A DNA stretch of 37,452 nt. It comes from Candidatus Thorarchaeota archaeon (GTDB lineage Archaea; Asgardarchaeota; Thorarchaeia; Thorarchaeales; Thorarchaeaceae). The DNA lies in assembly GCA_011364905.1 (NCBI GenBank), contig RDNZ01000027.1, forward strand, positions 1 through 37,452, given 5' to 3'. This document shows, piece after piece, positions 1,264 to 33,100 of this stretch (the first letter of the stretch is position 1; each line of letters begins with the position of its first letter). Both the position numbers and the translations under genes were made by a program. The notes under the pieces are model-generated. The model worked only from the letters and a program-made list of their open reading frames with translations, did not search any database and was not told the origin of the DNA.

Positions 1264-1320
1264 TGGCCCGTACGGCCTAAACAAAAGCCCCATAAATATT
1301 CGGTTTCATTAAAAGATACT

Positions 1321-6582: not shown

Positions 6583-8286
6583 TCAGTGGTTTTTCACAAG
6601 ATAGACAACTACTGCTATAGCTATAATGGCGACTCCAACGACGACTCCGAGGAGAAGAGGATTAAGAGGCTTCTGCGGAGCTCCTAGCGATAACATGAAC
6701 TCAGTGAATCCAGTGTAGTTGTTCCCAATGAAAATGCTTACCCCAGTGCTGTTCAAATCCTCTGAGAGTTCAATCGTTGCTTGACCTGTAAGAGACTGAC
6801 CACCACCCACGGCTATCACAGAATCAAGGGTAGTACCTGAACTATCAAGAATCGAAACACTCTCCCTGCTCCCAAGGCGAGGGCTTAAGCATTCGGTTCT
6901 AGTGGAGAAGGATAGACTTTCACCTGCACTTGTCCCGCCAGAGACACTTGATATTGTCACATCGAGCCGTGGAGTCATTTCAAGGAGATACTCAAAGGCG
7001 GGAGTCATGTCGGCCCAGAGTGGATCAATTCCCGCCTCCACTGGAGCAAAGTAGCCATAGATTCCCTTCCACTCGCGAATGATATGAGTGTCGTTATTCG
7101 AGATGATCACATGGGCCTCCGGCAGGTCTACTGACGCATTGTGGTATAGCTCGAGAGTTATGGGTACAGTGGTGCCGCGTTCATAATACATCCATCCCTC
7201 CCAGGCTCCACTTAGTCCAGATTCCAGTCTGTTCTCAGAGCCAATGTACCCGAGATACTCATTGAATCCATCTGGTAGAATATCTGCATAGTCTGTGGCC
7301 ATCCCATAGTAGAGAACAGGTTCAGTCCAAGCTTCGCTCGCATCAGTGGGAAAGTATGTAGCGTTTATTCCAGAGTGCAACGAGTATGCCATAGCAAACC
7401 GGTGATTCAATGCAAAGTCTCGGAAAGCCTGTGTTTCGGGCTCTGAGAATGGAGCACTTCCACAATAGACCTGGGTGATTGGATTCTGTAGGTCGGGGTC
7501 GTTTAGACCCCAGAAAACGGGATAGTTGCGGTTTAGATCGACAAGTCCAACCTCATCTTCATTCACTAATCCATCTCCGTCGTTGTCGATTCCTTCCCAA
7601 TACTCCCAATCATAGCTATTGATGCCGGGAACTTGTGTTGGATAGTCTTTTTCATAAACGAGGAAATCGGAGATAGCACCATCACCATTCACATCCTCAA
7701 CATCATCCTCAGAAAACAGCCCATCACCATCATTGTCGAAAGGTCTGAGATTCTTTCTTAGCCAATGGTTTCCGTCATTTACTACAATCTCGAGAGCGTC
7801 AGGATTGAGAGTGGGAATGATATAGATCTCCTCCGAGTCTACGTATTCAGTGATGGCATTATCAACCCCATAGTTATTGATCAAGTGTAATGCGAACCTG
7901 AGTGCCATCTCAACCGTGATTTGTTCTCTTCCGTGATGCTGGGCAACTACGAGGGTCTTAGCTTTCTGGATCGTGTTTAACTCGTTCGTGATGCGAAGAC
8001 ATGTTAGATTTCTTCCCTGATAGCTCTGTCCAATTACCTCAACATCGACAAGCTCAGGCACAAGACTTTGCATATTCTCAATCTCTTCGTCAACTTGGTC
8101 TGGATTATGGTATTGCCCATCGTAGAGAAGAGCCAATTGATCCCAGGTTCGAGTTACAGATGGCATTACTACTTTTTCGATGATTGGAACCAGTCCAGTT
8201 GGCTGCGACGCCATGACTTTCAAGGGAGCGACGGTCAGTGTGAGAAGGAGCGCGAGTAGTATGATTCGTGATTTGGTATGTGTGAT
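6583..8286 (-). CDS. Secreted, C-terminally anchored M14 zinc carboxypeptidase; start extended to a probable ATC codon
   Basis: HHGRE (HxxE), NPD, RKN, VDLNRNY, PFSEPET, SLHSG, TLELY motifs; three DxDGDG-type loops; C-terminal TM. The signal peptide THTKSRIILLALLLTLTVAP lies upstream of the ORF-track start, behind SD GAGGTGA. Confidence 0.9.
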   Translation of the reverse strand: MTHTKSRIILLALLLTLTVAPLKVMASQPTGLVPIIEKVVMPSVTRTWDQLALLYDGQYHNPDQVDEEIENMQSLVPELVDVEVIGQSYQGRNLTCLRITNELNTIQKAKTLVVAQHHGREQITVEMALRFALHLINNYGVDNAITEYVDSEEIYIIPTLNPDALEIVVNDGNHWLRKNLRPFDNDGDGLFSEDDVEDVNGDGAISDFLVYEKDYPTQVPGINSYDWEYWEGIDNDGDGLVNEDEVGLVDLNRNYPVFWGLNDPDLQNPITQVYCGSAPFSEPETQAFRDFALNHRFAMAYSLHSGINATYFPTDASEAWTEPVLYYGMATDYADILPDGFNEYLGYIGSENRLESGLSGAWEGWMYYERGTTVPITLELYHNASVDLPEAHVIISNNDTHIIREWKGIYGYFAPVEAGIDPLWADMTPAFEYLLEMTPRLDVTISSVSGGTSAGESLSFSTRTECLSPRLGSRESVSILDSSGTTLDSVIAVGGGQSLTGQATIELSEDLNSTGVSIFIGNNYTGFTEFMLSLGAPQKPLNPLLLGVVVGVAIIAIAVVVYLVKNH

Positions 8287-11317: not shown

Positions 11318-12367
11318 ATGACTGAGGAAACACTAGACCTCCTAAAGACCTTATCAGCAACCCCAGGGCCGGTTGGAAGAGAAAAAATGGTCCAAGATAT
11401 AATCAAAGACCACTTCAAGGACTATTGTGGCAGTTTCACACAGGATCGGCTTGGGAACGTGGTTGGAACTCTAGAAGGTGGAATCAAGAAGCACTATGCA
11501 GTGGTAGCACATGCGGATGAGGTGGGATTCCTCGTGAGCCATATTGATGAGAACGGTTTCATACGTGTGAAGTGGAACACACAGGGACACATGCCCGATC
11601 TTCGTCTTTTGCCAGGTCAATGGGTCCTCATCTTGACTGAAAAGGGATTGATACCCGGTGTTTTCTGTGTGACAACTGCTCATCTAGCAGGGCCAGAGGG
11701 AAAAAACCGAATCCCCACATATGAAGAAGTCTTCTTGGACACTGGAGCTCAGAGCGCCGCAGACATTGAAGAATTAGGCATCAACATAGGAGACCCCGTG
11801 ATCTATGCTGCGCCTGTAGAGAGGCTCTTGAATAATCATGTTTCTGGGAAATCGATGGATGACAGAGTAGGGCTAGTTGTCATGTTACGTGTCCTACAGC
11901 ATCTATCCAAGATACCCAAGACAAGAAGACCAACCGTGACATTCGTTTCTACAGTAATGGAGGAGATGGGAGCAAAGGGAGCTGCTGTAGTGGCAAAGGA
12001 CCTTGACCTTGATGCAGTTTTTGTTTTGGATATCGGTCTTGCTGATGATCATCCTGGAACAAAGGGAGAAACTGGAATTTCCCTCGGAAAAGGGCCAATT
12101 GTCGTCATTAAGGACAGTGCTTTACACTACTCGCACGAGCTTGTTCAAAGCGTCATCAAAACCGCAACAAAGGAAGAGATACCGATTCAGCGAGCGGTCT
12201 TCCACTCATACGTGACAGATGGCGTTCAATTTGCGTCTCAAGGTCAGATTGTTGCAGTCCTAGCAATCCCTTGCAGATATTCACACTCAAGTTTCGAAAC
12301 TGTGAACCTCTTGGATATTGATATGACGATACATCTGTTGATGAAGATACTTGAAGCTAGTTCATAG
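11318..12367 (+). CDS. M42 family metalloaminopeptidase (TET/Frv-like)
   Basis: AHADEVG, KSMDDRVG, MEEMG..GA, LDIG, RYSHS..E metal-ligand motifs. Confidence 0.93.
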   Translation: MTEETLDLLKTLSATPGPVGREKMVQDIIKDHFKDYCGSFTQDRLGNVVGTLEGGIKKHYAVVAHADEVGFLVSHIDENGFIRVKWNTQGHMPDLRLLPGQWVLILTEKGLIPGVFCVTTAHLAGPEGKNRIPTYEEVFLDTGAQSAADIEELGINIGDPVIYAAPVERLLNNHVSGKSMDDRVGLVVMLRVLQHLSKIPKTRRPTVTFVSTVMEEMGAKGAAVVAKDLDLDAVFVLDIGLADDHPGTKGETGISLGKGPIVVIKDSALHYSHELVQSVIKTATKEEIPIQRAVFHSYVTDGVQFASQGQIVAVLAIPCRYSHSSFETVNLLDIDMTIHLLMKILEASS

Positions 12368-18493: not shown

Positions 18494-19315
18494 TTGAGTA
18501 GAGTTATGAACGAACCTCATCTAAATGCCCTCAAATGCTCGAAATGTGGCAAGAAACTCCTTTTCAATGGTGCTTTTGGCGCTCAATCTGAAGTTGAGGA
18601 GGGAGAGATTGTGTGTGAAAGGGGGCACATCTGGTCCATAAACGATGGTATCCCTTCGCTTGTTCATCCCCCAATTAATGAGAAGGATGCAAAGTGGATA
18701 GCTGAATATGATGAGATGGCTGATAACTATGACGAACTAGTGAAACAGTACGACGAGTGGCTTGGTGTCGATATGATGAAGGAGCGTGAGAACTTCTCGC
18801 ACTTCGTTCCAAATGAAGGCCCTGTAAACATCATCGATGTCAGCATTGGCACGGGAGCTAACTTCATAGCTTTACAAAACCAGTTCAAGAATCAGATGAG
18901 TAGATTCAATCTTCACGGAATGGATCTCTCCACTGGGATGTTGAAGGTATCCAAAGCCAAGTTCATCGAGAATAAACTATCAGTCAGTCTGACTCACGGG
19001 AGCGTGTACAACATTCCTTACCAGACGTCTTTCTTTGACATCGTCGTACACTCCGGAGGATTGAACACATTCTCAGACATCCCAGGGGCACTCAATGAAA
19101 TGCTTAGGATCACCCATTCGGGGGGCACCATCATTGTGGTGGATGAGGGTCTCTCGCCAAGAAAGAGGGAAACGGAAGAGGGAAAAGAAATCATGAAAGC
19201 AAACACGCTCTTTGCAGCAAGGCCTCCGCTGAAACATATTCCCGTCGGTGCAAAAGATGTTGAAGTCACATATGTGATGAATGAGACCTTCTATCAGATA
19301 GTCTTCAAAAAATGA
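18494..19315 (+). CDS. Class I SAM-dependent methyltransferase with N-terminal Trm112-like domain
   Basis: LKCSKC...EGEIVCERGH.W.I.DGIP.L (Trm112-like); IIDVSIGTG, GMDLS.GML, FDIVVH.GG, ALNEM.R. Confidence 0.88.
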   Translation: MSRVMNEPHLNALKCSKCGKKLLFNGAFGAQSEVEEGEIVCERGHIWSINDGIPSLVHPPINEKDAKWIAEYDEMADNYDELVKQYDEWLGVDMMKERENFSHFVPNEGPVNIIDVSIGTGANFIALQNQFKNQMSRFNLHGMDLSTGMLKVSKAKFIENKLSVSLTHGSVYNIPYQTSFFDIVVHSGGLNTFSDIPGALNEMLRITHSGGTIIVVDEGLSPRKRETEEGKEIMKANTLFAARPPLKHIPVGAKDVEVTYVMNETFYQIVFKK

Positions 19316-19508
19316 CTACAGTTCAACAGACAAGTTTCCAAGAAAGACTCGGTCTGGTGTTAGACTGAATAAACTGAATTTGCGGGTCCGAAATAACCTG
19401 ACTGTTGAATATAGAAATCGTAATGGCAAACAGAACAATTTGGGTAAGAAGAATGATCGCAGTTGCCGAACCTGTCCGTTTAGGCAAAGGGTAGCGGGAA
19501 CTATCGCG

Positions 19509-19548
19509 AAAAAAAGGGAAATGCTCAGGTGGCTTCCCACATGAGCAC
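19509..19548 (-). terminator. Hairpin plus U-tract terminator of the micropeptide operon
   Basis: Minus strand: GTGCTCA-T-GTGG-GAAG-CCAC-C-TGAGCAT-TTCCC-TTTTTTT. Confidence 0.7.
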
Positions 19549-19638
19549 TTCTTCGACTGTTACATCACATTTCTGTGAAGCGCTCACTGGACTATTTTCT
19601 TTCAGGCTAGAGCCACTTGTGTCGTATTCTTGTGACAT
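19525..19638 (-). CDS. Micropeptide 3 (37 aa) MSQEYDTSGSSLKENSPVSASQKCDVTVEEVLMWEAT
   Basis: ATG 6 nt after the peptide 2 stop; SD-like AGGT; N-terminus MSQE resembles MAQE of peptide 2; ends inside the terminator. Confidence 0.65.
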   Translation of the reverse strand: MSQEYDTSGSSLKENSPVSASQKCDVTVEEVLMWEAT

Positions 19639-19644
19639 TGTGAT

Positions 19645-19731
19645 CTACCTGTAAGTGTATGCGTAGGCGATAGCCTCAGTCGAGATCTGCCTTTTAGGCG
19701 TGAACTTCTTGTGTGTGTTTTCTTGTGCCAT
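19645..19731 (-). CDS. Micropeptide 2 (28 aa) MAQENTHKKFTPKRQISTEAIAYAYTYR
   Basis: Strong SD AGGAGGT; C-terminal motif shared with peptide 1. Confidence 0.8.
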   Translation of the reverse strand: MAQENTHKKFTPKRQISTEAIAYAYTYR

Positions 19732-19737
19732 GATTGT

Positions 19738-19845
19738 TTACCTCCTATAGATGAACGCGTACCCGATTGCATCAGTTGTGTAGACCTTTGCAATCTTGTT
19801 TTCCAACGTCTCTCGCTTGTTTGTCGTCAGATTCATGCGATACAT
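19738..19845 (-). CDS. Micropeptide 1 (35 aa) MYRMNLTTNKRETLENKIAKVYTTDAIGYAFIYRR
   Basis: First ATG after the TATA box, GTGA 6 nt upstream; C-terminal motif shared with peptide 2; alternative ATG at 19836. Confidence 0.75.
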   Translation of the reverse strand: MYRMNLTTNKRETLENKIAKVYTTDAIGYAFIYRR

Positions 19846-19878
19846 TGCTTATCACTATACGTACACACACCAAATTTG

Positions 19879-19893
19879 TATATAAGGTTTGTC
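19879..19893 (-). promoter_or_regulatory. BRE/TATA promoter of the micropeptide operon
   Basis: Minus strand GACAAAC-CTTATATA, about 34 nt upstream of ATG 19845. Confidence 0.65.
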
Positions 19894-20062
19894 GAACCAA
19901 CTGTTTCGTTTTTTTACGTTCATGTTATGCACTATTATTGCACTAATGGACCAAAAAGCGATTCATTACAAACTTTTCAATACATAATGGTTCGCCATCA
20001 CCAGCAAATTTAAATAATTAGTTTGTTCAAGAGAATTTAGATTAGGAGCGTTTTAACACGCT

Positions 20063-20095
20063 TCTGATGGATTTGAAATTTCAAAATCCATAAGA
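20063..20095. promoter_or_regulatory. Long near-perfect inverted repeat upstream of the wHTH regulator
   Basis: TCTGATGGATTTGAAATTTCAAAATCCATAAGA, directly 3' of TATA-like TTTTAA (20051-20056). Confidence 0.5.
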
Positions 20096-20172
20096 TGAAT
20101 ACACGGACGATTCCAAGGCTAAGCGAGTCGCTTGATGAATCGACGGGTCAAAATGCATTGGTGAGCAGTAAT

Positions 20173-20928
20173 ATGGGCGATGACTATGCAACAACTGAGA
20201 TTACAGACAGCCTAGAAGGAATTGTCTTAACGAAAGAGGGGGAAACCCCCCAGAAAGAACTTGTTTTTGTGACGAGTGACGAGAGAGCCGAGGTTCTTGA
20301 TGAGCCAGTCCGATACAACATTCTACAGACACTACGAAAAGGCATAGAAGACACTGTGACGACCAAAACGGTGGACGCAGACACGGGAGACACGATTATT
20401 CGACAGAGAGTCGTCACGCGCGATGCGCTTTCGGTCGTAGAGATCGTGAAAATGTCGCCAAAATGTTGTACCGAGGGCGAGGAAATCACTAAGAATCAGG
20501 TATATCATCACTTGCCAAAGCTCATAGAGCATGGTTATGTTATCAAATATGGTACAACAACCACAGGTAAACGGAGCACCGACTATTATCGACGCACAGC
20601 CAAGGGGTTCATGCTAACTACTGGGGCTTGGGGAACTGAAGAGAAGCGAATCCGAGAGAAACTTGAAGGATTCACTGACAAGATGCTTGAAACCTTCAAC
20701 CTGAAAATCTCTAAAGAGAAACGTGAAGAGCTTGTGAATCTGAGTGTAAAACGGGCCCAGATGCAGCACAGATGGAGAACCAAGATTGCAGAGATGGTGA
20801 ATCTGGACATCGCAACCAAAGAAACCCTTGCTATGTATGAGATGCTTTTGGACTACTATTCTGTGGGCTTTGAGGAGTACATGGATACGATTCAGAGAAT
20901 TAGAGAGATCCTCTTCCCAGAAAGTTGA
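20173..20928 (+). CDS. Winged helix-turn-helix (ArsR-like) regulator with insertion and helical C-terminal domain
   Basis: VLDEPVRYNILQTL...ALSVVEI...NQVYHHLPKLIEHGYV...YYRRTAK; SD GGTGA upstream of ATG 20173. Confidence 0.85.
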   Translation: MGDDYATTEITDSLEGIVLTKEGETPQKELVFVTSDERAEVLDEPVRYNILQTLRKGIEDTVTTKTVDADTGDTIIRQRVVTRDALSVVEIVKMSPKCCTEGEEITKNQVYHHLPKLIEHGYVIKYGTTTTGKRSTDYYRRTAKGFMLTTGAWGTEEKRIREKLEGFTDKMLETFNLKISKEKREELVNLSVKRAQMQHRWRTKIAEMVNLDIATKETLAMYEMLLDYYSVGFEEYMDTIQRIREILFPES

Positions 20929-20955: not shown

Positions 20956-21330
20956 CTAGATGTGCCCACGCAGCTGAATAGCCGTCTTCTTGATGTCTAT
21001 AAGAGCCAGTTCAGGGACTGCGGAGGGGGCGGCAAATGCGATGGCCCAACTGTCTTCATCGATGAGCACAAGAATGAGGTGACCTTTGGCATCGTCCGCA
21101 GTTGCGATGTAGGCGTCCTTTGAAGAGAAAACACGACGATATGTTACACCTCCTGTAGTCAGTTTCGAGGCGTCTTTATCAGCTGCTTTGAGAATCCCAT
21201 CTATTTCATCCACAAGATTCCAGTTATCGGTCTGCCAGATAACAGCTCCTTCTTTGGCCACCGCAAAGGCGTGTATCTTTGGATTGCTCGCGAAGAGGAG
21301 ATTCCATTCATGACCGATTACTAAAGCCAA
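20956..21330 (-). CDS. Profilin-like protein (second, divergent paralog)
   Basis: 124 aa from TTG 21330 behind SD GGTGA; IWQTDNWNL, GVTY, KGHLIL, C-terminal LRGHI; aligns end to end with the adjacent profilin. Confidence 0.8.
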   Translation of the reverse strand: MALVIGHEWNLLFASNPKIHAFAVAKEGAVIWQTDNWNLVDEIDGILKAADKDASKLTTGGVTYRRVFSSKDAYIATADDAKGHLILVLIDEDSWAIAFAAPSAVPELALIDIKKTAIQLRGHI

Positions 21331-21416
21331 AATACAATCACCATATCTATACTGAAATGTATTAGGGGATGACTCTGTTGAAGCTGACCCCCCATTAAAC
21401 ACTTTGTCAGAATGTT

Positions 21417-21803
21417 CTAGATCTTGCCTCTGAGTGTCTTTGCTGCTCTGTCGACATCGACATAGACACCATCTGGTTGCGCTTGTGCGTCTGCCCATGC
21501 CACAACCCATCTATCACTTGTAGTGTCAATCTTTGTAAGAATCAGTATCCCGTTTCCTTGGACATTTCGAGCAACAAGGCTTTCAGGGGTAGACCTCATC
21601 GTGGAATATTTCACCTGATTCTGAATAATGCTGGCTGCTCGAGACTTCACTGCAGACATCAAGTTCTTAGCATCAGCGGTCAAATCCCAATTGTTGCTCT
21701 GCCAAAGGACCTGTCCGGACTCGGATATCACACCAAAGGCTTGGACCATATTTCCTGAACTGTTGTATGCTTGCGTATATGCATCCATTACCGGATCGCT
21801 CAT
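21417..21803 (-). CDS. Asgard (Thorarchaeia-type) profilin
   Basis: GVI...GQVLWQSNNWDL, VKYSTMR, LVARNVQGNG.LI pattern matches Asgard profilins as recalled (Loki-type QTENW, IKYM, GTNITGKGH); SD GGGGTGA. Confidence 0.85.
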   Translation of the reverse strand: MSDPVMDAYTQAYNSSGNMVQAFGVISESGQVLWQSNNWDLTADAKNLMSAVKSRAASIIQNQVKYSTMRSTPESLVARNVQGNGILILTKIDTTSDRWVVAWADAQAQPDGVYVDVDRAAKTLRGKI

Positions 21804-22311: not shown

Positions 22312-24858
22312 GTGATAAAGATGGACCGTACTACATTCCTTGGATGTACATACACGGTAGGTCTGATTCTAGTTGGTGCGGCAATACTTACGGGTCGCTA
22401 TGCTCATCCAGATGTCATCATAACCCTAGTCGTGGAAGTGTTTCTCCTCTATTTTTCTCTGTTTAGAGACCCTCTCAAGAGAAACAAACTTGGGGCAATG
22501 GTCATTCTTACTTCTGTATATTATCCACTCAGTGTGCTACTGGGGATTTTCTCAGACATGGTTGTAATTGCCATCGGAGGAGTAGCTATCTATGTGGCTA
22601 TGACTGTCAGAATTGACCTTAATCCAACAAAGGGACTTCTAGCAGGTATATTCTCTGCAGGAATCTTCTTTGCTTTTTACCTGATGGTCCAAAGAGGAGC
22701 AGTGTCGCCCGATGTTTTGATGGCACTTATTATCCACACTCTATTGCTGTATATGGCCCTCAGCAAGAAACCACCAGGCAAGTCAGAATTGGCTGCCATC
22801 AGCATGTTGGTCTTGATTTGTTTATCACTAAGCTTGCTACTCAGGTTCTTCTCCTTCGTAGTCATTTGGACATTAGGGAGTCTTGCATTCTACGGATATG
22901 TCAGGGTAGAGCCAAAGTTTCCTCTTACAAAGCGTGCCATAGGAACAGGACTGATCGTTGGCGTAGTCATGACATTCATGGGAATATATCTCGCTCTGAA
23001 AATTGGTATTGTCTTTCTTGTTGGTGCAGAGATGCTTGGAGCACTCTTTCTAGGCGTGAAAGGGAGGTATACGAGAGAAGAGAATGCAGTGGCCGTGACT
23101 ATTTCCAACACATCATCAATGGTTGCGATAGGAGTCCTACTCACATACCCAGCGATAGCAATTTTCGATCCAGCAAACCCGCTCTTCAATGTCAATAATG
23201 TAGACTATAGTCCCATCATGACACTTTTGTTTATCATGTTCACGACTGGTATTAGTGCAATATTCGGAATTGTTATTCTGGCCCCATTCAGACATCGATT
23301 TGAGAATGAGCCTTGGCCTCGGGTGCAACCACAAGTCGAGTGCATTAACTCAATCGGGAGTGATGCAAAATCGAAAAGGGCTGTGGGCATCGGACTTGTT
23401 GGATCAGGGGCGTGGGTAGGTGCAACAAAGATTAGTGAAACAGCTACCGGGATGACACTAACTACTTTCCCAAATGCCCTTGCTCCGATGATACCGGCAG
23501 TAACAAGCATCCCAGATTGGATTGGTATTAGTAACTCGCCAATGATAGCGGGTATTGGTTTCTTCGTCGGATGGAAACGCTCCCTAGTGATGCTTTTGGG
23601 GGGTATAATCTCGATATTGATATGGATCATCTTGGAGGGAGCAGATGGGACTGTACTCTACACGACGCATCTCAAAAGACCTGAGATCCTGTATCTCGCA
23701 CTGGGGGTCTTTGTTACAGTTATCCTCGCGGATGTGGCGGGATCGAAGGACGAAGGAAATCTAAGTCCTGAAGAGATACAGGAAAAAATACATCCACATG
23801 ACGACGATGTGCTAATGATAGAGACCCCACACAAAAGCAATGAGTTGGCAAGGTCGCTAAGGGTCAAGGAAGAACTATTCTCAATAGAGGCCTTTAAGGA
23901 GGATGTCCGTCAGATCATAGAGGACCCGAGAGAATTCATGCGTTCAAAAAGAGGACAGGTCCCTGTTTGGATTGCATTAGTCTCAATGGGACTTTTCATG
24001 ATTGTAGGACTCATCGTGTTTTGGTTCATCAAACCATTCATGGCAAGTGCAACATCGCCGCTCGAGATCCATTGGCTTTTGATCATCTTTGGTACTCCAT
24101 TGGCACTGGTATCAGCGTATTTCACTGCACGGGCAATAAGTGAAACTGGCATGCTTGCAGGTTACATCTCGGATATGATCTCGATACCTGCAATCCTCCT
24201 CTTTAGGACCACTTTTTCAGCCGTCACCACATTCATGGGAATGCTTGGTGCGATTCAGGATGCTGCAATCGCATTACTTGTTCACTTAAAACTCGGGTCA
24301 ATGACAGGTGTTCGTGGTAGAGACATCTTGAAAGCAGTCTTCATTGGGACTATGCTTGGCTCAACGGTCGGCTCTTTCATAACCTTTGAAGTATTCAGTA
24401 CCTATGGCTTTGGAACAGTGGACTTCCCAAGTCCAGCTGCGCAGCTCTTTGGTTTTCTTGTTCTTAGCCTTCAAGGCTTAGGGCATTTCCAGTTGCCTGG
24501 TGTAAGTGAATTAGGAAACCTAAACCCAATTGTTGCATTTCTTTATCTGCTTGCCTGGGCGATTGGTGGATTTCTCATGGGTAGAACCCTGAGCAAACAT
24601 GGACTGAGCCCGATCAGTCTTGTAGTTGGAGTGCTCATTCCACCGGCCACCTCTGTAACTATCTTAATTGGTGGTTTAATCAACTACAAAGCCAAACATC
24701 CTCATCAACCCTCCCCTATGACAGACCACTTACCTCAGCAGGTGGAGGTAGTAGATGTGGACTATAGCAATACAAGTAGAATCCTAAGCGGAGTTGTAGC
24801 GGGAGAGGCTGTTGTCACAGTTATCTGGATTCTCTTGAACGCATTCAGTTTCCTGTAG
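22312..24858 (+). CDS. OPT/YSL family oligopeptide transporter with extra N-terminal duplicated membrane module
   Basis: LTKRAI..G......Y..LKIG, EEN....TI, RAISETG, LKLG...G, FP.P.A, SGVVAGE motifs. Confidence 0.82.
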   Translation: MIKMDRTTFLGCTYTVGLILVGAAILTGRYAHPDVIITLVVEVFLLYFSLFRDPLKRNKLGAMVILTSVYYPLSVLLGIFSDMVVIAIGGVAIYVAMTVRIDLNPTKGLLAGIFSAGIFFAFYLMVQRGAVSPDVLMALIIHTLLLYMALSKKPPGKSELAAISMLVLICLSLSLLLRFFSFVVIWTLGSLAFYGYVRVEPKFPLTKRAIGTGLIVGVVMTFMGIYLALKIGIVFLVGAEMLGALFLGVKGRYTREENAVAVTISNTSSMVAIGVLLTYPAIAIFDPANPLFNVNNVDYSPIMTLLFIMFTTGISAIFGIVILAPFRHRFENEPWPRVQPQVECINSIGSDAKSKRAVGIGLVGSGAWVGATKISETATGMTLTTFPNALAPMIPAVTSIPDWIGISNSPMIAGIGFFVGWKRSLVMLLGGIISILIWIILEGADGTVLYTTHLKRPEILYLALGVFVTVILADVAGSKDEGNLSPEEIQEKIHPHDDDVLMIETPHKSNELARSLRVKEELFSIEAFKEDVRQIIEDPREFMRSKRGQVPVWIALVSMGLFMIVGLIVFWFIKPFMASATSPLEIHWLLIIFGTPLALVSAYFTARAISETGMLAGYISDMISIPAILLFRTTFSAVTTFMGMLGAIQDAAIALLVHLKLGSMTGVRGRDILKAVFIGTMLGSTVGSFITFEVFSTYGFGTVDFPSPAAQLFGFLVLSLQGLGHFQLPGVSELGNLNPIVAFLYLLAWAIGGFLMGRTLSKHGLSPISLVVGVLIPPATSVTILIGGLINYKAKHPHQPSPMTDHLPQQVEVVDVDYSNTSRILSGVVAGEAVVTVIWILLNAFSFL

Positions 24859-25002: not shown

Positions 25003-26391
25003 TCAACCTTTGTAGGCATCTTCAAGAGCCTTGTCCCATTCATCCACTCCGGTTTCATCACCCTTCCGTTTTTTCCTCTCTTTTGCACGAGCTTTTCGGG
25101 CTTTTTCTGCTTCTCTTCTTTTTCTTGCAAGGTTTTTCTTTCTCGCTTTTGCCTCTTCTTTTTCTTCCTTTGTGAGCTTCTCCCCCTCAACGACTTCACG
25201 TTTGGACATCCAACTAATGACTGCGGCTGAGAATGGAAATAGCAATACAACCGGAACAAGGAATAACATGACAATTTCAGGTTGAATTAGCTCAACACTG
25301 TCACGTATGCCAATTGGAAGATTGAGCAGCATCTGAACAACATTAGGACTGATAAGAATGAATGATAACGCAACTACCGTTAGAAATCGAATTGCAGAAC
25401 CTGTAATTGTTGAACCAATAACATAAGAGGAAGAGGGGGCGGCAGCCTTAGCTGTCAACTCATCTCGAGCCCTCGAGTCGCTCTGAAGTAAGTCATCAAC
25501 GTAGATTTGTAGACGACGGACGTCAGAAACCGCATCTAGGCTTTCAAGAGCTGATTGTCCGCCCATAACCTTGCGCTCCATGGCCTCTCTAAGGAATGAG
25601 AACGCTGTGGCCCCCGTAGACCGGCTCATGCCTGTTGAGCTTACTTTCTCGCCACGTTCAATCGCGTCTTGCTTTCGTGTAGCCTGACGCAAAGCCAGCA
25701 ATTGCTTCTTGAGAGTTTCTTCCCTGTCTTCAACCGGCTTTCCAACAGAGTGGCTGTATATCATCTGATAGCTCACTTCAAGATAGGCAAAGGAAACCAG
25801 AGCAAGAATCTGACCTTGTGTCGTGAGAAACTGAAGGAAGTCAGGAGGTAGAGGATCGATGTTGGGGACAATGAGAGCTCTATACGCTGCAAGAATGACT
25901 ATTGCCTGAATTGATATGAACGCACCTCCAACAAACTTATGGTCCATTCTAGCAAGGGACTGAAGGAAGAGTGCGATTCCCACTCCAGCACAGAGAAAGT
26001 AGAGGAACAAGAAGGTGTTGTTCCATAGTGCAATCAATACATCGTTCAAGTTCGTGAAGAATGATGCCCATACTTGCTGGATATTCGTCAATGGGTCCGA
26101 CACACCATATGGTTGCATATACCAGGTTCTAAGCACAAGCGTATTGTAGAGACCTATGACTAAGTTGTCGGGAAGAGCACCGGCTGCAAATGCACCGGCC
26201 AGACCTCCAACCATTGTGGTAGCCAGGAAGAATACTATCAACGACAGTAGACGGAAAACTGTCACGACAAATGTATAGGGCGCGTTCCAATGCCAGATGT
26301 CGTTGGGATCAAGGATTGAATATACCATAAATGCCATGAGAGAGAACGTGATAATGGAGGCAATCCGAAGAATCCATGTGACGACTTTCAA
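25003..26391 (-). CDS. Polytopic membrane protein, last gene of the MoxR operon
   Basis: TTG overlaps the DUF58 stop codon; multiple TMs, a cytoplasmic coiled segment and a highly charged C-terminus. Confidence 0.85.
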   Translation of the reverse strand: MKVVTWILRIASIITFSLMAFMVYSILDPNDIWHWNAPYTFVVTVFRLLSLIVFFLATTMVGGLAGAFAAGALPDNLVIGLYNTLVLRTWYMQPYGVSDPLTNIQQVWASFFTNLNDVLIALWNNTFLFLYFLCAGVGIALFLQSLARMDHKFVGGAFISIQAIVILAAYRALIVPNIDPLPPDFLQFLTTQGQILALVSFAYLEVSYQMIYSHSVGKPVEDREETLKKQLLALRQATRKQDAIERGEKVSSTGMSRSTGATAFSFLREAMERKVMGGQSALESLDAVSDVRRLQIYVDDLLQSDSRARDELTAKAAAPSSSYVIGSTITGSAIRFLTVVALSFILISPNVVQMLLNLPIGIRDSVELIQPEIVMLFLVPVVLLFPFSAAVISWMSKREVVEGEKLTKEEKEEAKARKKNLARKRREAEKARKARAKERKKRKGDETGVDEWDKALEDAYKG

Positions 26392-27710
26392 AACATTGCC
26401 ACCCCCCTCTGTTTTGCCTGCTCATATGTACGCATAATTGTTGGCAGAAAGTCCTCAGGGCCTACATTGATTACATTGATACCGAATCTTGACAGGGCCC
26501 TAGCAATCTTGTTCCTACGTTCCCAAAGTTCCTCTGAAACAGCCTCAGACAGTACCTTCTCAACTGGGCCAAACTGACCCACTGGTGCTTCGAACCATGG
26601 ACCAAATGGACTGATTATAAGTGCCTTATGGCCATTCGCCACCAGTGTCTTCATTGCGTTGAGAAGTGGAGCAGGACTCTCTTCCAAGTCTGTCATCCAG
26701 ATGATGAGTGATCGTTTCTTAGTCTGAGTGACAACATGGGAGATAGCTGTTTCATAGTCGCTCCATCCTTTGGGTTCGGCCATTGCAAGGATTTCAAGAA
26801 CATCATACATGTGATTGGGACGCTTCCCTGGAGGGACATATCCATGGACGATATCACTAAACACACAGGTACCAACTAGGTCATTCCTCTCCATTCCCAT
26901 ATGAGTGAGAAGCACAGCTGCTCTTATCGCATACTCAAGCTTTGTGTTTTCAGGGTAGCCATTCCCCATGCTACCACTGGTGTCGACCATGCAAATCATC
27001 TGAACATTCTTCTCTTGTTCCCACTGTTTCACAACCATATCGCCGCGTTTGGCACTCGTTTTCCAATCAATCAGTCGAAACTCATCTCCAGGAACATACT
27101 CTCGAAAACCTGCAAAGTCTGTACCCATTCCGACTGTTTTGGTCCTGTGGGCACCAAACATGAGGCCGAGCTGACGCTGTTTAGCGAAGGACTCAAGGCG
27201 ACGTACATCCTTCCATGTGGGATAAACCAGAACCTCAGTATGCTCCTTCAGGATTCTTTTGTAATAATGCATCCCAAGTCTGTCACGCATTATGACCTCT
27301 GTTGGGCCAAGAAAGTAGCGTCCACGCATTCGAGCCTGCAAAATGTAGGAGAAGGTCATGCTGCTGCCTGGTTCAATCCGAGAAGCTATGAAGTTCTCGC
27401 CAATTGCCAGAATCCAGGTCTCTGGATATTGGTCATGAACCTCAATGAAATCAAAATGACGACGAGATGCGTTTCGAACTGTAACTCGGACTCTGAGAAA
27501 GTCACCTGAAAAGAGCTTTACTTTGTCAATCTGACGATCTACTTCAATTCCAGCTAGATTAGCAGTCAATGCAAAGAGAGGCAATGTGACAACCAGACCA
27601 ATCACACAGTATACTCCTAGAAGGACGAGGTAGAAATTAAGGAAGGAGAATCCACTAGTGAGTAGAAGAACTCCCGCAAAGACTACCACAAAGCCTCTCT
27701 GAGTTATCAA
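26388..27710 (-). CDS. DUF58 / vWA domain protein
   Basis: Two N-terminal TMs; G.DF...REYVPGD..R.IDWK.SA; MIDAS VDTSGSM. Confidence 0.92.
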   Translation of the reverse strand: MITQRGFVVVFAGVLLLTSGFSFLNFYLVLLGVYCVIGLVVTLPLFALTANLAGIEVDRQIDKVKLFSGDFLRVRVTVRNASRRHFDFIEVHDQYPETWILAIGENFIASRIEPGSSMTFSYILQARMRGRYFLGPTEVIMRDRLGMHYYKRILKEHTEVLVYPTWKDVRRLESFAKQRQLGLMFGAHRTKTVGMGTDFAGFREYVPGDEFRLIDWKTSAKRGDMVVKQWEQEKNVQMICMVDTSGSMGNGYPENTKLEYAIRAAVLLTHMGMERNDLVGTCVFSDIVHGYVPPGKRPNHMYDVLEILAMAEPKGWSDYETAISHVVTQTKKRSLIIWMTDLEESPAPLLNAMKTLVANGHKALIISPFGPWFEAPVGQFGPVEKVLSEAVSEELWERRNKIARALSRFGINVINVGPEDFLPTIMRTYEQAKQRGVAMF

Positions 27711-27746
27711 TTCAAATCTTCCCCATCTAACTTATGACTTACATTA

Positions 27747-28736
27747 TTATTTAGGACAATCAACTTCTCCCAGAATTTTAGCAACAACACGACTCACTGT
27801 CAATCCTTCGAGTTCGGCTTCAGGTTTGAGAATGAGTCGATGATTTAGAGCCTGTACCGAGAGCCTACGCACATCCTCAGGGATTACATAGTCTCTGCCC
27901 TCCATAGCCGCACGGGTCTTTGAGGCATTCATGAGCACAAGCGATGCACGGGGTGATCCACCTAGCAAAATCTGCGGATCATTTCGTGTGCGGACAACGA
28001 TGTCACGAATATAGTTGATGACATCTTCTTCTATGAAGACTGTCCTGCAGGTGTTCTGCATTCTCACCATTGCTGCAGGATCAGCGAGAACACCCAAATC
28101 AGTTGCTTCACCAAGATGTTTCCTACGTACAATTTCAGCCTCTTCCTGATCTGTAGGATAGTCAAGTATCAGACGGAACATGAACCTGTCAAGTTGTGCC
28201 TCTGGCAGGGGGTATGTGCCTTCCTGTTCAACTGGGTTCTGAGTGGCAATTATTAGAAATGGCTTGGGAAGCTTACGGGTCACACCCTCAATCGATACCT
28301 GTCGTTCTTCCATCACTTCAAGTAATGCGCTCTGAGACTTCGGGGGGCACCTATTGATCTCGTCAGCCAGGACAAGGTTTGAAAACACGGGACCTTTACG
28401 GAACCAGAACTCGCCTGTTCGCTGGTTGAACACATTGCTACCGAGTAGGTCTGCTGGAAGGGTGTCTACCGTAAGCTGGATTCTTTTGAATGCACAACCA
28501 AGAATGGATGCGAATGTCCGAGCCATGTAGGTCTTCGCAATCCCAGGTACTCCTTCTAGTACAACATGACCGTTTGAGAGAAAAGCAACAAGCACATCCC
28601 GAAGGATGTCTTCTTTTCCAACGATTATGCGACCGCACTCTCGGAGGATTTCACTCGTGGCCTTGTGCACCTCATCAATGGACATAGTCGCAGAGGTGTC
28701 GATAACCACAGTGTCGTTCGTTTCTTCTGTTGTCAA
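27747..28736 (-). CDS. moxR: MoxR family AAA+ ATPase
   Basis: GHVVLEGVPGIAKT, RIQ.T.D.LP.D..G, LADEINR.PPK.QSALLE.MEE, ATQNPVEQEGTYPLPEAQLDRF, G.SPR. Confidence 0.96.
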   Translation of the reverse strand: MTTEETNDTVVIDTSATMSIDEVHKATSEILRECGRIIVGKEDILRDVLVAFLSNGHVVLEGVPGIAKTYMARTFASILGCAFKRIQLTVDTLPADLLGSNVFNQRTGEFWFRKGPVFSNLVLADEINRCPPKSQSALLEVMEERQVSIEGVTRKLPKPFLIIATQNPVEQEGTYPLPEAQLDRFMFRLILDYPTDQEEAEIVRRKHLGEATDLGVLADPAAMVRMQNTCRTVFIEEDVINYIRDIVVRTRNDPQILLGGSPRASLVLMNASKTRAAMEGRDYVIPEDVRRLSVQALNHRLILKPEAELEGLTVSRVVAKILGEVDCPK

Positions 28737-28743
28737 ATTTGTT

Positions 28744-30144
28744 CTACCTCATTTTTGTATCTATCACGTGTGATTGGATGTTGCGTATGAAGAAGAAGAG
28801 CTCCATCATCTCACTCTCCTTTATTGTAATGCTCGTATCGGTTGATATCTCCTCGATTCGAGCTATAGTTCTGAAGAATTCACTCTCTTTCAAGTTCGGG
28901 TCTTTGTCATGCATAACCTCCCATAGCTTCTTGGGACTGTATTCACTCCAGTGCTGCGTCTTTTTCAATCCCCGCCGCAAACGGCGATACAGCATCTTGA
29001 CCACCCTTGCATAGTTACCTTCGGTTCGATAATACGTCATTCTTTCACTAAAGTACGTTTGACCTCTTCGTAAGAAGACATCTGAAACACTCTTGACCTC
29101 TGGTTTCTTTATCTCTGGCAAGTACTTCTTAATCCCCAGCGTTGTGATAAGCGGATATGCAGCAGCCAAGAAGGGCAGAGAAGAGAGCCAAAGTATTCTG
29201 CCTAAGTAAAGTCCGAAGAAGAACTCACTCGACCACCAAGGAACCTCAAGTAGATTCTCACAGAACAGAACAGGTTGTGAATTGTCACCATGTGAGAGCC
29301 AGTTGATGACATTATCTCCAAATTGCCTGTTGCCAGAGAACCTTCCCCACATGTCATTGTTGAATATGCTGGGATCGCTGACTGCGACCAATCTTCCTCC
29401 ATTTGGAGTCTGAGGCGTGGAAAAGTCGACCGCCCCGACTACTGGAAGTCTTCCACTTAGTTCGTATGGGTCCGGATCAGGGGTGGGATCAGTGATGTTT
29501 GTTTCGCACCAAGACCTCGGAGTCGTCCAAGCAATTCCTAATTGGCCCAAGAGACAGTATGGGCTAATAGCTGACGCCCAGTTGAGATGTAGCTCTGACA
29601 CTCCTGCGGTAAGTGCACCTTGATCTATGCCATTTCTGACAAAGTCTCTGATGATCGGCAATCTTGGATCTTTTGCCGGATCATAGGAGTCTAAATCGAG
29701 CAGGACTCCATGGACAAATGACAGAAGACCCTTAGTTGTATTGGAACCTATGAACGAGTTCATGAGGAAGTTGAGTAGACTGAGCGATGCGTTGGCTGAC
29801 CCAAAATCATCTGCTATAAGCACGCCTCCACCGTTCATTAAGTGCGTAAGGATAACCACTGCTGCATCTATGGTGAAGTCTCGAACTGGTCCCATGATGA
29901 CTAAAACCGCAGATCCATTGTATCTTGATGCTACACTCATGCTCGCCTGGATGGACATCACATCTTGGCCGTTACTCTCAATGTTGTTAGCGAACTGACT
30001 GAGACCCGAATAACTGTCATTGTAAATAGAGAAATCATAGCCGTAGTTGGCTTGTGCTCCTACCAATGTAGTAGTAGCTAGAATGCCCACTGGAATCCAT
30101 GCCATGATGAATAGGATGACTTGGAGGGTCTCTTTCCAGCCCAT
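28744..30144 (-). CDS. DUF4350-like (GATase/GldG-like fold) membrane-anchored protein
   Basis: SIYN..YSG.S, GG.VLIADDFG.AN, GRLVAVSDPSIF.N.M, N..F..N...WL; position in the MoxR operon. Confidence 0.82.
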   Translation of the reverse strand: MGWKETLQVILFIMAWIPVGILATTTLVGAQANYGYDFSIYNDSYSGLSQFANNIESNGQDVMSIQASMSVASRYNGSAVLVIMGPVRDFTIDAAVVILTHLMNGGGVLIADDFGSANASLSLLNFLMNSFIGSNTTKGLLSFVHGVLLDLDSYDPAKDPRLPIIRDFVRNGIDQGALTAGVSELHLNWASAISPYCLLGQLGIAWTTPRSWCETNITDPTPDPDPYELSGRLPVVGAVDFSTPQTPNGGRLVAVSDPSIFNNDMWGRFSGNRQFGDNVINWLSHGDNSQPVLFCENLLEVPWWSSEFFFGLYLGRILWLSSLPFLAAAYPLITTLGIKKYLPEIKKPEVKSVSDVFLRRGQTYFSERMTYYRTEGNYARVVKMLYRRLRRGLKKTQHWSEYSPKKLWEVMHDKDPNLKESEFFRTIARIEEISTDTSITIKESEMMELFFFIRNIQSHVIDTKMR

Positions 30145-30162
30145 TCTTATCTCTCCATTAAC

Positions 30163-33100
30163 TTACTCTACTGGGGCAGTTGAATCAATTCTGGGATAGA
30201 GGTCAGTGAAGATGCGAACCGCCTCCTCATACCTCTCACGTGTCATTTCATGGTGTGAGAAGCGAGCCTCTTCGTATGTCTGCACGAATTGTTCAACAGT
30301 CGCGCCATCAAGAGGAATCACCTGGAGGACACGGTCAAGATACTCGCGAGCAGTTTCAGAACTGGTCCTCTCGGACCCCATCTTAGAACCACACATCTGC
30401 TCGAACGTACGATATGCCAGGGTGATTGAGGCGCCGTACTTTCCAGAGTCTGCGAGTTTCTTGATATTCCGAAGTTTGGTAGGGATATCTATTCCTCTAG
30501 AAATGATTGGACTGCGGAACATTCCTCTTACAATGTACAGGTACGCCAGAACGGCGATGACTGCACCAATGAGCAAGATACTTGCTATGAGTAAATCTGT
30601 TCCTTGCAATGGATTACCACCTGTTGTTTCTATATTGATTGTGAATGTATTAGACTGAATATTATCAACATCAATTGAAATGAGTACGACTGCGAACCGA
30701 ATAATTGAACGGCTCTGAGCAGGTACATCATGTCTGAATGTTCCAGTTACATCTAGCACATAATTGAACACATTTGTGCTATTGTAATTCAGACGTATGC
30801 GACGAAACATAATTGGATTACCTGATGGATCATGTAGTGTGCACTGGATGGTGAATGGTTGACCTGGATCTACCCTGTGGGGAGTATATGAGAAGACAAC
30901 ATCTTCGAAGACATGGATTCCTTCGCCTGCTATGACGGCGCTTGGATTGATGTATCCAGTACCGCCATATTGAGCGGTGATATTGAAGATTCCATTTCCT
31001 TCACTCCAAGTCAGTGGTACTAGGAGTGAAACATTCATCCTACTGGCATCAGTAAGCAGAACATTGGTAAGATGTGTGGAACCAAGATAGATGGACACCG
31101 ATTGCCCATTAAGGGGAATCCCATCATCATCTATAAGCTGAATGTTTGCTGAAAAATGTTCTCCGGGCATAAGCGATTGAACACTTGTCTGTACATCAAC
31201 ATGTGAGGCAATGTAAACCAGAATAGTCCATTCTGTAGGACCATTCCTGAGCTCATGGTATGTCGATGTGACCTGAATACCAATGTAATATAGTCCTCTT
31301 TGGGCCGTCCCGGGAACAGTGACAGAAATTGAGTAGGTGCCATCTGTAGCAGTGACAGATGTGAAAGACGATGGTGTGCCATTAGCCAATACCTCTACCG
31401 TCACACCATCTGCATTGAAGCCTCCGTCATTAAGAACATGTCCTGTCACAACCAATGTGCCACCGCGGGTCAAGCTATTATCAGCAGGCTGGGGATCCAT
31501 GAAGACATCGACCCGCTCAATCACGGTGACGCTGCTGAAAGGCTGATTTGTATCCGTAACGCCCCAGGCTATCGTTGGCGGCTCAAAGAGCGCATAGCCT
31601 GACAAGACTCCGATAGCGTTGCTATATGGGACTGAGTAAAGATAGCTGAATGAACCAAGCGCGGGATCAGTTATGGTGAGTGTTGTCAGATGGTTACCGC
31701 CCCACCAGATCTGTATATCATAACCTACAAGCGGAGTACCATTCGTGAACTGGAGGGTGCCTGAGAAAGTCACACTCCCACCCAAGTATGTGGTTGTCGT
31801 ATCCACATTTGTCGTGATTGTAGCCCTGTAGATATCTACTGTTACTGGAATGACTGGAGACTCTCCGGATGCTGCGTATCCAGATGAGGCAATGTATGCC
31901 CAGACATGCTGGACGTATGTAAGAAGACCCAAGTCATCAGGGATATCAAAGATGATGGTGAAATCACCAGTCCCGTCAGTCAGATAGTCGTTGACAATGA
32001 CCGTGTTTGCACCATAATAATCGCCCCAATAGATATCCAAAGGCAGATTTGCATATGAAGTTCCATTGTCCCATTGGACTGTTCCTGTTATTCTTAAAGC
32101 CTGGTCCAAGTAGACTGTTGTTGGTGTAACCAAGAATGCAGTGAATTGAGGTTGTGGTGCAATGATTTGTATCTGCGGTAAAGCAAATGATGTACTAGCT
32201 ATCCAGGGATATGGGGAGTAGAATGTAACAAGCAGGTCATAGAATCCGGGGGATACAGTTCCAGGAATACTCCATCGAAGTATGAAAGATCCATCTGACA
32301 GCGTCACATTTGTAGTTCCGAAAACCGTTACATTAACCGTAGCACCACCGTAGGGAACAGAGGGCGATACGTACTCTAAGTATCCAGTTATGGTCACAGT
32401 ATCCCCAATCCGATATGGACCTACAGGAAGATTCACTCCTGTGAATGTAGTCTGCCACTGGTTCAATGTGAGAATATTATGGACGGACTCGTTTGAGGCA
32501 AGAAACACTGTACCCGCATACACTCCATAGACTTCGATACCAGTTCTCACCTGGTCCCAGCTCATACCCGAGTAGTACAGGTCAGCTTGACCAGTCTCGT
32601 TAGTAATGACATCACCTAACCAGGGGATTGGTAGTGTCGCGTTGTTCCAGTAGAGTGAAACGGTCGCGCCTGAAAGCGCGGTACCGTTATGCGCGAAGTA
32701 AGTATAGACATGGACTGTCAACGTTTCATTCTGCTTGACTGGATTGGGGTCAATTGTGACCTCCAGATTGATTGTGTATTTGATACGAGTGATGCTGAAG
32801 TAAGCAACCGTATCATTGTTCAGAGGGTTTGGACTGATGTATAAGACACGAAAGTTGACAATCCCTTCATCATATGTTGCAAAACTAAGAGGTGTGAGAA
32901 AGCCTCCGGTCAGATTTGTCGTTGGATTGTCAAGATCGGTCCAACCAGAGCCATCCCAATAAGAGAGATAGACCATTTCCCCAGACAGTGGTGGTGCCCC
33001 GCCTAGATATGTCAGCACCCCTTGAACATCAAAGGCTGTTTCATCTACATACAGCGGTGTCGGTGCCGTGATTGCTATCTCTAGGTAGTATCGTTGGAGC

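Follow-up and report, generated by a model that had tools for sequence, protein, structure and literature searches.

By anatomy, the closest described counterparts of the locus reported here are the leaderless peptide operons of Firmicutes, namely psm-alpha, aureocin A70 (aurABCD) and garvicin KS, in which two to four homologous leaderless peptides of 20–45 residues are encoded head to tail with their own regulator and sometimes an adjoining exporter. Three further groups of systems share features with it, the SpeFL/TnaC and Rgg/SHP types being the nearest in their logic: SpeFL, TnaC and the fungal arginine attenuator peptide, which are alike in length (24–35 residues), in their hydrophilic and basic character, in the conservation of the last dozen residues and in their coupling to the next cistron; Rgg/SHP, ComR/XIP and PlcR/PapR, where the peptide gene is divergent from its regulator, the C-terminal part is conserved and an oligopeptide transporter is nearby; and PqqA and MftA, short peptides with a tyrosine-containing C-terminal core. 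Here we analyse a 37,452-nt stretch of DNA (‘the window’; contig RDNZ01000027.1 of assembly GCA_011364905.1) from a Candidatus Thorarchaeota archaeon, one of the Asgard archaea, which are the closest known prokaryotic relatives of eukaryotes. The window carries an operon of three very short open reading frames (ORFs), P1, P2 and P3. From comparison with related genomes we have high confidence that all three are genuine protein-coding genes under purifying selection, and it is very likely that they are real translated genes. As judged from the genomes searched, the peptides form a multi-locus family restricted to one family of Thorarchaeota, and this peptide family is undescribed in the databases and literature that we consulted.

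Coding evidence and family distribution

The original prediction, made from the letters alone, had placed a complete minus-strand unit in the apparent gap between a methyltransferase gene and a winged helix-turn-helix (wHTH) gene, running from a promoter through P1, P2 and P3 to a hairpin and a U7 tract. We find this unit at 19508–19898 on the minus strand (all positions are window coordinates), with each ORF exactly where it had been placed, and the flanking genes do encode a UbiE-like methyltransferase and a wHTH protein. The three cistrons are as follows.

19845–19738, minus strand: P1, 35 aa, TAA stop codon
19731–19645, minus strand: P2, 28 aa, TAG stop codon
19638–19525, minus strand: P3, 37 aa, TGA stop codon

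A DNA search recovered the region in 24 of 24 same-genus species at 67–80% identity. Every orthologous locus that was retrieved keeps the three frames open, with near-fixed lengths of 35, 29 and 38 residues, and frames and lengths persist even in diverged lineages missed by the profiles described below; the expectation that the frames be conserved in relatives is thus borne out. Within the orthologous peptides the N-terminal parts are variable and the C-terminal parts are kept. Ratios of non-synonymous to synonymous substitution rates (dN/dS; Nei–Gojobori, 18 orthologues) are 0.31 for P1, 0.18 for P2 and 0.44 for P3, and 0.21, 0.10 and 0.24, respectively, over the last 13 codons, whereas the two shifted frames of the same alignments give 0.9–1.7. 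This frame specificity upholds the selection at the protein level that had been proposed from the codon usage. In the window all three ORFs share one frame, each separated from the next by a stop and two codons. A single recoded read-through protein was considered and rejected, as the junction frames differ between orthologues and each ORF has its own ATG and Shine–Dalgarno sequence; in 8 of 22 loci one or both junction gaps have a length not divisible by three, and P1, P2 and P3 are therefore separate cistrons.

P1 and P2 had been noted to align without gaps at the C-terminus, with several shared residues written in different codons (GCA/GCT, GCG/GCA, TAT/TAC). Both features can be read directly in the sequence, and profile–profile comparison with hhalign identifies the two as true paralogues (probability 96.7%, E 4.6e-10 over 16 C-terminal columns). 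P1 varies in its N-terminal part and ends in a conserved ..AIGYA[YF]xYRR, while P2 is very basic and has the conserved end ..ISTxAIxxxYxYR, so that the C-terminus of both is tyrosine-striped. P3 combines a variable Ser/Asp/Lys-rich N-terminal part with a conserved end, ..TxEEVLMWEAT. The looser hydrophobic-[ST]-x-[DE]-x-[IV] motif by which the original prediction tied P3 to P1 and P2 did not hold up, giving no profile–profile signal. P3 as a distant paralogue of the other two is therefore not supported, and its derivation as a relic of the N-terminus of a major facilitator superfamily (MFS) protein was rejected on the same ground, hhalign finding nothing in either case. The N-terminus of P1 (MAL.TNSR-type) is conserved family-wide, and peptides of the P1 and P2 types can be told apart, and occur as a pair, from genus to genus and in at least five paralogous loci. 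The stability of the two types, together with the conserved P1 N-terminus, favours a function of the whole peptide over that of a mere stalling tail.

P1 and P2 lack Cys and are basic peptides, with a mean pI of 10.0 for P1 and 10.3 for P2 and net charges of +4.5 and +5.7, respectively, and P3 is mildly acidic (net charge ~−2); the mean grand average of hydropathy (GRAVY) is −0.88 for P1, −0.89 for P2 and −0.76 for P3. As first noted, none of the three has a hydrophobic or signal segment, nor did we find in any of them a transmembrane helix, the feature by which a type I toxin or small membrane protein would be recognised. AlphaFold2 (AF2), applied to the natural read-through fusion, placed helices over the conserved C-terminal segments only and coil elsewhere, at low confidence. 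The prediction of a P1+P2+P3 complex gave a score of 0.03 with an uncertain partner fold, and counts neither for nor against binding.

Two motif readings of the C-termini were discarded. An HbYX-type proteasome-docking C-terminus is incompatible with the varying distance from Tyr to the end (YR, YRR, YNR, FRR), and in a PqqA-like Glu-x3-Tyr motif the acidic position is replaced freely by Arg, Gln, Lys, Phe or Ile. Among PDB sequences we observed only a weak resemblance to an L20-like ribosomal protein (PDB 9g6k, E 0.015), in which the 19 residues 17–35 of P1 (19738–19794) match a helix, with a K-hydrophobic-A-R-V start and a Y-[AS]-Y-I-x-R-R end in common. Kinship with L20 was judged to be chance, the match being to a single PDB chain with no Pfam L20 match; the resemblance, though probably fortuitous, fits the idea of a basic, aromatic, nucleic-acid-binding helix.

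A search across Thorarchaeia and other Asgard genomes, which had been proposed at the outset for the motif and was made here with profiles, gave P2 matches in most genomes of the family and none elsewhere in the phylum. The P2 profile matches 69 of 85 family genomes (15 of 16 genera), with 3–10 matches each, and 0 of 315 other Asgard genomes; the P3 profile matches 59 of the 85, with one weak and clearly spurious match among the other Asgard genomes. Family genomes missed by the profiles still hold diverged peptides beside the regulator gene, and the amino acid motifs are kept at 40–50% DNA divergence and in paralogous loci. In 1.84 billion predicted proteins, HMMER found 15 relatives of P1, all of 33–49 residues and none in a longer or fused form; the five that were looked up all lack a protein name. 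The original prediction had recognised no described system here, and indeed P1, P2 and P3 are without match in Pfam (E<=10), NCBIfam (E<=1) and PADLOC. The ESM Atlas returned no usable look-alikes, a tblastn search of a phage collection with P1 returned no match, and literature searches on Asgard and Thorarchaeota small proteins yielded nothing on the peptide family.

Expression signals, regulator and genomic neighbourhood

The signals that surround the three cistrons are listed here in the order of the minus strand.

19993–19986, minus strand: conserved box GAACCATT in the divergent intergenic region, towards the wHTH gene
19898–19886, minus strand: candidate operator, an imperfect palindrome GGTTCG-A-CAAACC directly abutting the TATA box
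19885–19879, minus strand: TATA box, TTATATA
19855–19851, minus strand: Shine–Dalgarno-like GTGAT, 5 nt 5' of the P1 ATG
19745–19740, minus strand: P2 Shine–Dalgarno sequence GGAGGT, built from the final Arg codon of P1 and its stop codon
19650–19640, minus strand: P3 Shine–Dalgarno-like junction AGGTAGATCAC, spanning the final Arg codon of P2 and its stop codon
19551–19518, minus strand: terminal RNA hairpin with a 10-bp stem and a 4-bp apical stem
19514–19508, minus strand: U7 tract, a likely transcription terminator

In a DNA alignment of 24 loci, CAAACCTTATAT at the TATA box is nearly invariant among genus orthologues. From the TATA-to-start spacing usual in archaea, the transcript is predicted to start at ~19855, with a 5' untranslated region (UTR) of ~10 nt. 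The operator-like inverted repeat reads GGTTTG-N-CAAACC in orthologues, within a conserved block aatggtttgt....caaaccttatat, and it overlaps the position of the B recognition element; we regard this palindrome as a candidate operator for the divergent wHTH regulator. The box GAACCATT, a consensus of the same alignment, is the reverse complement of the AATGGTT-type box beside the peptide promoter and may be a regulator site.

The Shine–Dalgarno-like element of P1 is conserved as GTGA.AAACAATG. Between P1 and P2 the gap is 6 nt here and 4–7 nt in orthologues, and GGAGGT is kept across these although the first Arg codon of the P1 end varies (AGG/CGG). The P3 junction is conserved as aggta....gat..caatg, with P2–P3 gaps of 0–6 nt. 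By this spacing the operon is translationally coupled, each downstream ORF starting 0–7 nt past the previous stop; because the Shine–Dalgarno sites sit in the last codons, the codons for the Arg or Arg-Arg that ends P1 and P2 do double duty, and coupling between the three cistrons is obligatory.

The terminal hairpin has a folding energy of about −21 to −23 kcal/mol (z = −2.5 relative to shuffles) and reaches into P3: its 5' arm and loop are the last nine P3 codons, the 5' arm itself corresponding to the Glu-Val-Leu codons, and its 3' arm begins in the stop codon. Over 29 loci, pairing is present in 86% of cells, compared to 29–45% in slid controls, with compensatory changes at three pairs (for example GTG to GTA, matched by C to T) and a covariation score reached by 0 of 500 shuffles. 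T-runs are kept in orthologues, and some other genera form a differently placed hairpin at the same spot. Because the loop codons (Met-Trp-Glu-Ala-Thr) still vary synonymously, the end of P3 is under both protein and RNA constraint.

The genes and loci around the operon are given below.

20095–20928, plus strand: wHTH regulator, divergent from the operon, with a winged helix and a C-terminal helical domain
18494–19315, plus strand: methyltransferase, an N-terminal Trm112-like zinc ribbon fused to a UbiE/COQ5-like class I S-adenosylmethionine (SAM) methyltransferase
22312–24858, plus strand: OPT oligopeptide transporter, 1.4 kb beyond the regulator
20956–21510, minus strand: orf184, conserved, no Pfam or NCBIfam match
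25003–26391, minus strand: ORF, conserved, no Pfam or NCBIfam match
6583–8223, minus strand: M14 carboxypeptidase
11318–12367, plus strand: M42 aminopeptidase
26388–36327, minus strand: co-oriented run with a 2054-aa ORF (30163–36327), ABC_transp_aux/DUF4350, a MoxR-type AAA ATPase and DUF58/VWA; a MoxR-VWA type cluster headed by the giant protein

The regulator has a weak Pfam HTH_20/PadR match. Its AF2 model (predicted local distance difference test score, pLDDT, 77) retrieves PH1932/1ULY (E 2e-08), PadR, VanR and Phr 2P4W as top Foldseek matches, which points to a Phr/PadR/ArsR-like fold. We surveyed 47 loci from other genera and this genome, and a regulator orthologue lies divergently upstream of the peptides in 21 of them. 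Searching in the opposite direction, from the regulator, we found peptide ORFs divergently upstream in 52 of the 59 loci having upstream DNA, so that the synteny with the wHTH gene, which had been put forward for checking, is widely kept. The seven loci without peptides are mostly low-identity regulator paralogues, three of them from metagenome-assembled genomes that also hold a peptide-linked copy. In a subclade of genus g25 (L168, L169, L170) the regulator orthologue scores ~265–273 bits, as opposed to >315 bits elsewhere, and its partner is a single, strongly diverged peptide of 36–39 residues that starts with MALAKK or MAFAKK and ends with YRxSF[VR]R; regulator and peptide may have diverged together here.

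The methyltransferase lies convergent beside the operon in 18 of the 21 regulator-linked loci, and has been lost at L008, L099, L100 and L105 while peptides and regulator stay. Its zinc ribbon matches NCBIfam Trm112_arch (E 0.001); the methyltransferase falls far short of all equivalog cut-offs. Among the M14, M42 and OPT genes, only OPT is syntenic with the peptide locus in other genera (12 of 18 loci); M14 enzymes can trim C-terminal basic residues, the kind that end P1 and P2. orf184 is syntenic with the regulator across the family.

This genome holds six peptide loci, namely that of the window and the following five.

C53 (L003): beside superoxide reductase and a GNAT gene
C11 (L065): between PolX and YbaK
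C78 (L064) and C17 (L063): peptide arrays directly upstream of MFS pumps
C47: a single peptide beside peroxiredoxin

A P3 homologue starting with GTG, followed by the same hairpin, is present at C53 (L003 ~1290–1400, minus strand) and C11 (L065 ~2960–3070, minus strand). These homologues, which end in ..TEVLALEAT and ..AEVLALEAT, respectively, were missed by the ATG-only ORF scan and by the P3 profile. C53, C11, C17 and C78 share an almost identical promoter and 5' UTR of ~95 nt, unlike the promoter of the window. It contains a perfect palindrome, AGTCACA-N3-TGTGACT (L003:1671–1685, L065:3341–3355, L063:4297–4311 and L064:4288–4302), a third GTGAC copy and a TATATATA box. The same palindrome-plus-TATA design precedes two larger genes (C10:61473 and C32:20025), which suggests a regulon. 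Since four paralogous loci carry this different promoter, the peptide family is split between at least two regulatory inputs.

Proposed function and rival explanations

The 47 surveyed loci have in common a P1-type peptide with a P2-type peptide behind it. P3 is added in 29, and in 25 of these the next gene is convergent, leaving those loci without a co-oriented downstream gene to regulate. In 8 loci a same-strand MFS pump follows, and P3 is absent in all 8; the pump ATG lies −1 to 617 nt past the P2 stop, and within 16 nt of it in three loci. The pumps belong to two different MFS lineages, and the arrangement is also seen in other genera. For example, an MFS_1/MFS_3-type pump at C17 (L063:2412–4737) has its ATG 5 nt past the last peptide stop, and at C78 (L064:1686–4223) a P1/P2-type array runs into the second lineage. 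Such arrays comprise 3–6 homologous peptides before one pump.

We postulate that one short transcript would give rise to three peptides in a fixed ratio, acting in trans. In each peptide a flexible N-terminal part would precede a short, conserved helix of ~11–13 residues at the C-terminus, the working part, which would dock on a conserved partner. The peptides could be partners to one another (basic P1 and P2 against acidic P3), or the partner could be a protein such as the Phr/PadR-like regulator or, in sister loci, the MFS pumps found in place of P3, although any one of these taken singly is at best doubtful. The regulator, for its part, probably controls the operon through the GGTTYG-N-CAAACC palindrome abutting the TATA box. 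That the products are trans-acting small proteins rather than cis-acting leaders, with exported peptides counted among the former, seems to us reasonably probable, because most loci are stand-alone and terminator-closed, and because every paralogous locus retains the two peptide types together, with the P1 N-terminus conserved. The fuller proposal, co-produced proteins working through conserved C-terminal helices on a conserved partner, is more tentative and falls a little short of an even chance, though it is the likeliest of the readings considered here. The opposite charges of P1/P2 and P3, combined with their obligatory co-translation, suggest joint action.

Several observations weigh against the docking proposal. 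Action in trans does not fully explain the repeated link to MFS pumps, which is the strongest clue to function; a pump placed directly after P1–P2 fits leader or export models at least as well as intracellular docking. The block TrmB-methyltransferase-peptides-regulator-orf184-DUF167-OPT is syntenic across the family, so that adjacency alone is weak functional evidence and could reflect inherited gene order. AF2 gives no confident fold (fusion pLDDT 58, predicted template modelling score, pTM, 0.23) and no tertiary packing. Lastly, overlapping RNA signals, namely the Shine–Dalgarno sites and the hairpin arm, account for some of the conservation at the C-termini.

The MFS link keeps two rival explanations alive. 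One holds that P1 and P2 are cis-acting leader or arrest peptides, at which a ribosome pausing near the stop gates the next cistron (P3 here, MFS in sister loci) in response to a metabolite or to the supply of charged Tyr-tRNA, in the manner of SpeFL, TnaC and the fungal arginine attenuator peptide. It would account for P1–P2 always being the 5' module while the third cistron varies (P3 in 29 loci, MFS in 8, never P3 together with a pump), for pump ATGs −1 to 16 nt past the P2 stop in several genera, for the Shine–Dalgarno sequence of the next ORF lying in the last codons, where a paused ribosome would cover it, and for tunnel-sized, near-fixed lengths of 28–36 aa with conservation strongest in the last 12–13 residues; SpeFL has a similarly hydrophilic, basic, aromatic-striped ending before Arg-stop. 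The same model leaves most loci, which are stand-alone with a terminator, with a 38-aa peptide as sole cargo; a stalling tail needs neither the pairing of two types in every locus nor a conserved P1 N-terminus, and arrays of 3–6 homologous peptides before one pump do not suit it. The terminal Arg-stop is sufficiently explained by the Shine–Dalgarno overlap, and we know of no arrest peptide in archaea. We consider this explanation unlikely. So is the other, in which P1 and P2, perhaps along with P3, are exported without a leader (as a signal, a surface-active agent or an antimicrobial), leave through the MFS pumps and could be sensed again via the OPT transporter and the PadR/Phr-like regulator, as in psm-alpha, aureocin A70, garvicin KS and Rgg/SHP. 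Tandem homologous 30-aa peptides without a leader in one coupled operon, two unrelated MFS lineages directly behind peptide arrays in several genera, a divergent regulator kept in most loci and the OPT synteny all suit export, and known peptide pheromones have their mature signal in the conserved C-terminal part. The peptides, however, are strongly hydrophilic (GRAVY ~−0.9) rather than amphipathic membrane-active helices; their C-terminus is conserved across an archaeal family at fixed loci, a pattern unusual for weapons and pheromones, which tend to diversify and to be patchily distributed; no ABC/C39 exporter, link to a processing protease or TPR-type receptor was found, and the OPT link is perhaps plain synteny. 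To our knowledge there is no precedent for MFS pumps exporting 30-residue peptides. A complete sensing circuit, with MFS export of leaderless Tyr-striped peptides, OPT re-uptake and readout by the PadR/Phr-like regulator, whose relatives bind phenolic ligands, is distinctly less likely.

Two further alternatives concern the nature of the products. Precursors of a ribosomally synthesised and post-translationally modified peptide or of a peptide-derived cofactor (PqqA/MftA-like), the Tyr-rich C-terminus being the modified core, would be in keeping with short peptides in multiple genomic copies, with their conserved Tyr-rich cores, and with the convergent class I SAM methyltransferase of most regulator-linked loci and the GNAT genes near two paralogous loci. 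A scan of 29 window ORFs and of paralogous loci yielded no maturase gene (radical-SAM, YcaO, lanthipeptide LanM/B/C, cyclase, or peptidase-transporter such as C39), which makes this reading weak and weighs against the precursor half of the original suggestion (cytoplasmic regulatory peptides or peptide precursors). In a would-be Glu/Asp-x3-Tyr motif the acidic position freely accepts other residues, and the methyltransferase is lost at L008, L099 and L100, which keep the peptides; we rate the precursor reading very unlikely. That the region is non-coding (promoter, UTR or small RNA) and its ORFs accidental has next to no likelihood. The conserved hairpin does overlap the P3 end, and nucleotide conservation at the promoter and junctions is high, but the frame-specific substitution pattern contradicts this alternative, as do the intact fixed-length ORFs at all loci and motifs that outlast the DNA divergence; searches of the region found no tRNA gene and no Rfam family at gathering score, with only a chance miRNA match (E 0.56).

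Since almost all Asgard genomes are annotated automatically, with ORFs this small dropped, a whole gene set at five or six loci per genome has been missed. If the peptides are regulators, signals or ribosome sensors, they would constitute a lineage-specific control layer in Thorarchaeota biology. The sensing circuit, if true, would be the first peptide-based cell–cell signalling system proposed for Asgard archaea; under the arrest model, P1 and P2 would be the first archaeal metabolite-sensing ribosome-arrest peptides. Peptides of 30 residues and one regulator offer a synthesisable biochemical handle on organisms that cannot yet be grown, and should the role prove modest, the locus would still be a clean test case for finding small genes by comparative genomics.

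Comparison with known systems

The family is not assignable to any of the known systems introduced above, as the following comparisons show. Tandem homologous leaderless peptides in one operon are present, as in the Firmicutes operons. Those peptides are amphipathic or hydrophobic, served by ABC exporters and variable between strains or species, whereas the Thorarchaeota peptides are strongly hydrophilic, MFS-linked, placed at fixed loci and conserved family-wide, and have no sequence similarity to them. No hydrophobic stretch that could form an amphipathic or membrane-active helix occurs in the three peptides, and dedicated ABC exporter or immunity genes do not adjoin the operon, the ABC-2 genes lying 2.3 kb off beyond two genes and the sister loci carrying MFS pumps instead.

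Set against SpeFL and TnaC, the locus has no downstream enzyme or transporter gene, only P3 and a terminator coming after P2 here and an MFS gene in 8 sister loci, and it differs in its paired peptide types and conserved N-termini. In the pheromone divergons the receptors combine a helix-turn-helix with tetratricopeptide repeats (HTH-TPR) and the precursors are hydrophobic and strain-diversified; here the peptides are hydrophilic and conserved, and the neighbouring regulator folds, in its model, as a winged helix plus C-terminal helices with no TPR. In contrast to PqqA and MftA, no radical-SAM maturase or chaperone gene is nearby and the acidic partner residue is unconserved. For the regulator alone, PH1932, Phr and PadR are the nearest comparison: it differs from them in its 10–20% identity, its extra N-terminal acidic tail and its additional beta-strands, and it shares with them the winged helix, the long C-terminal helices and a palindrome at the promoter.

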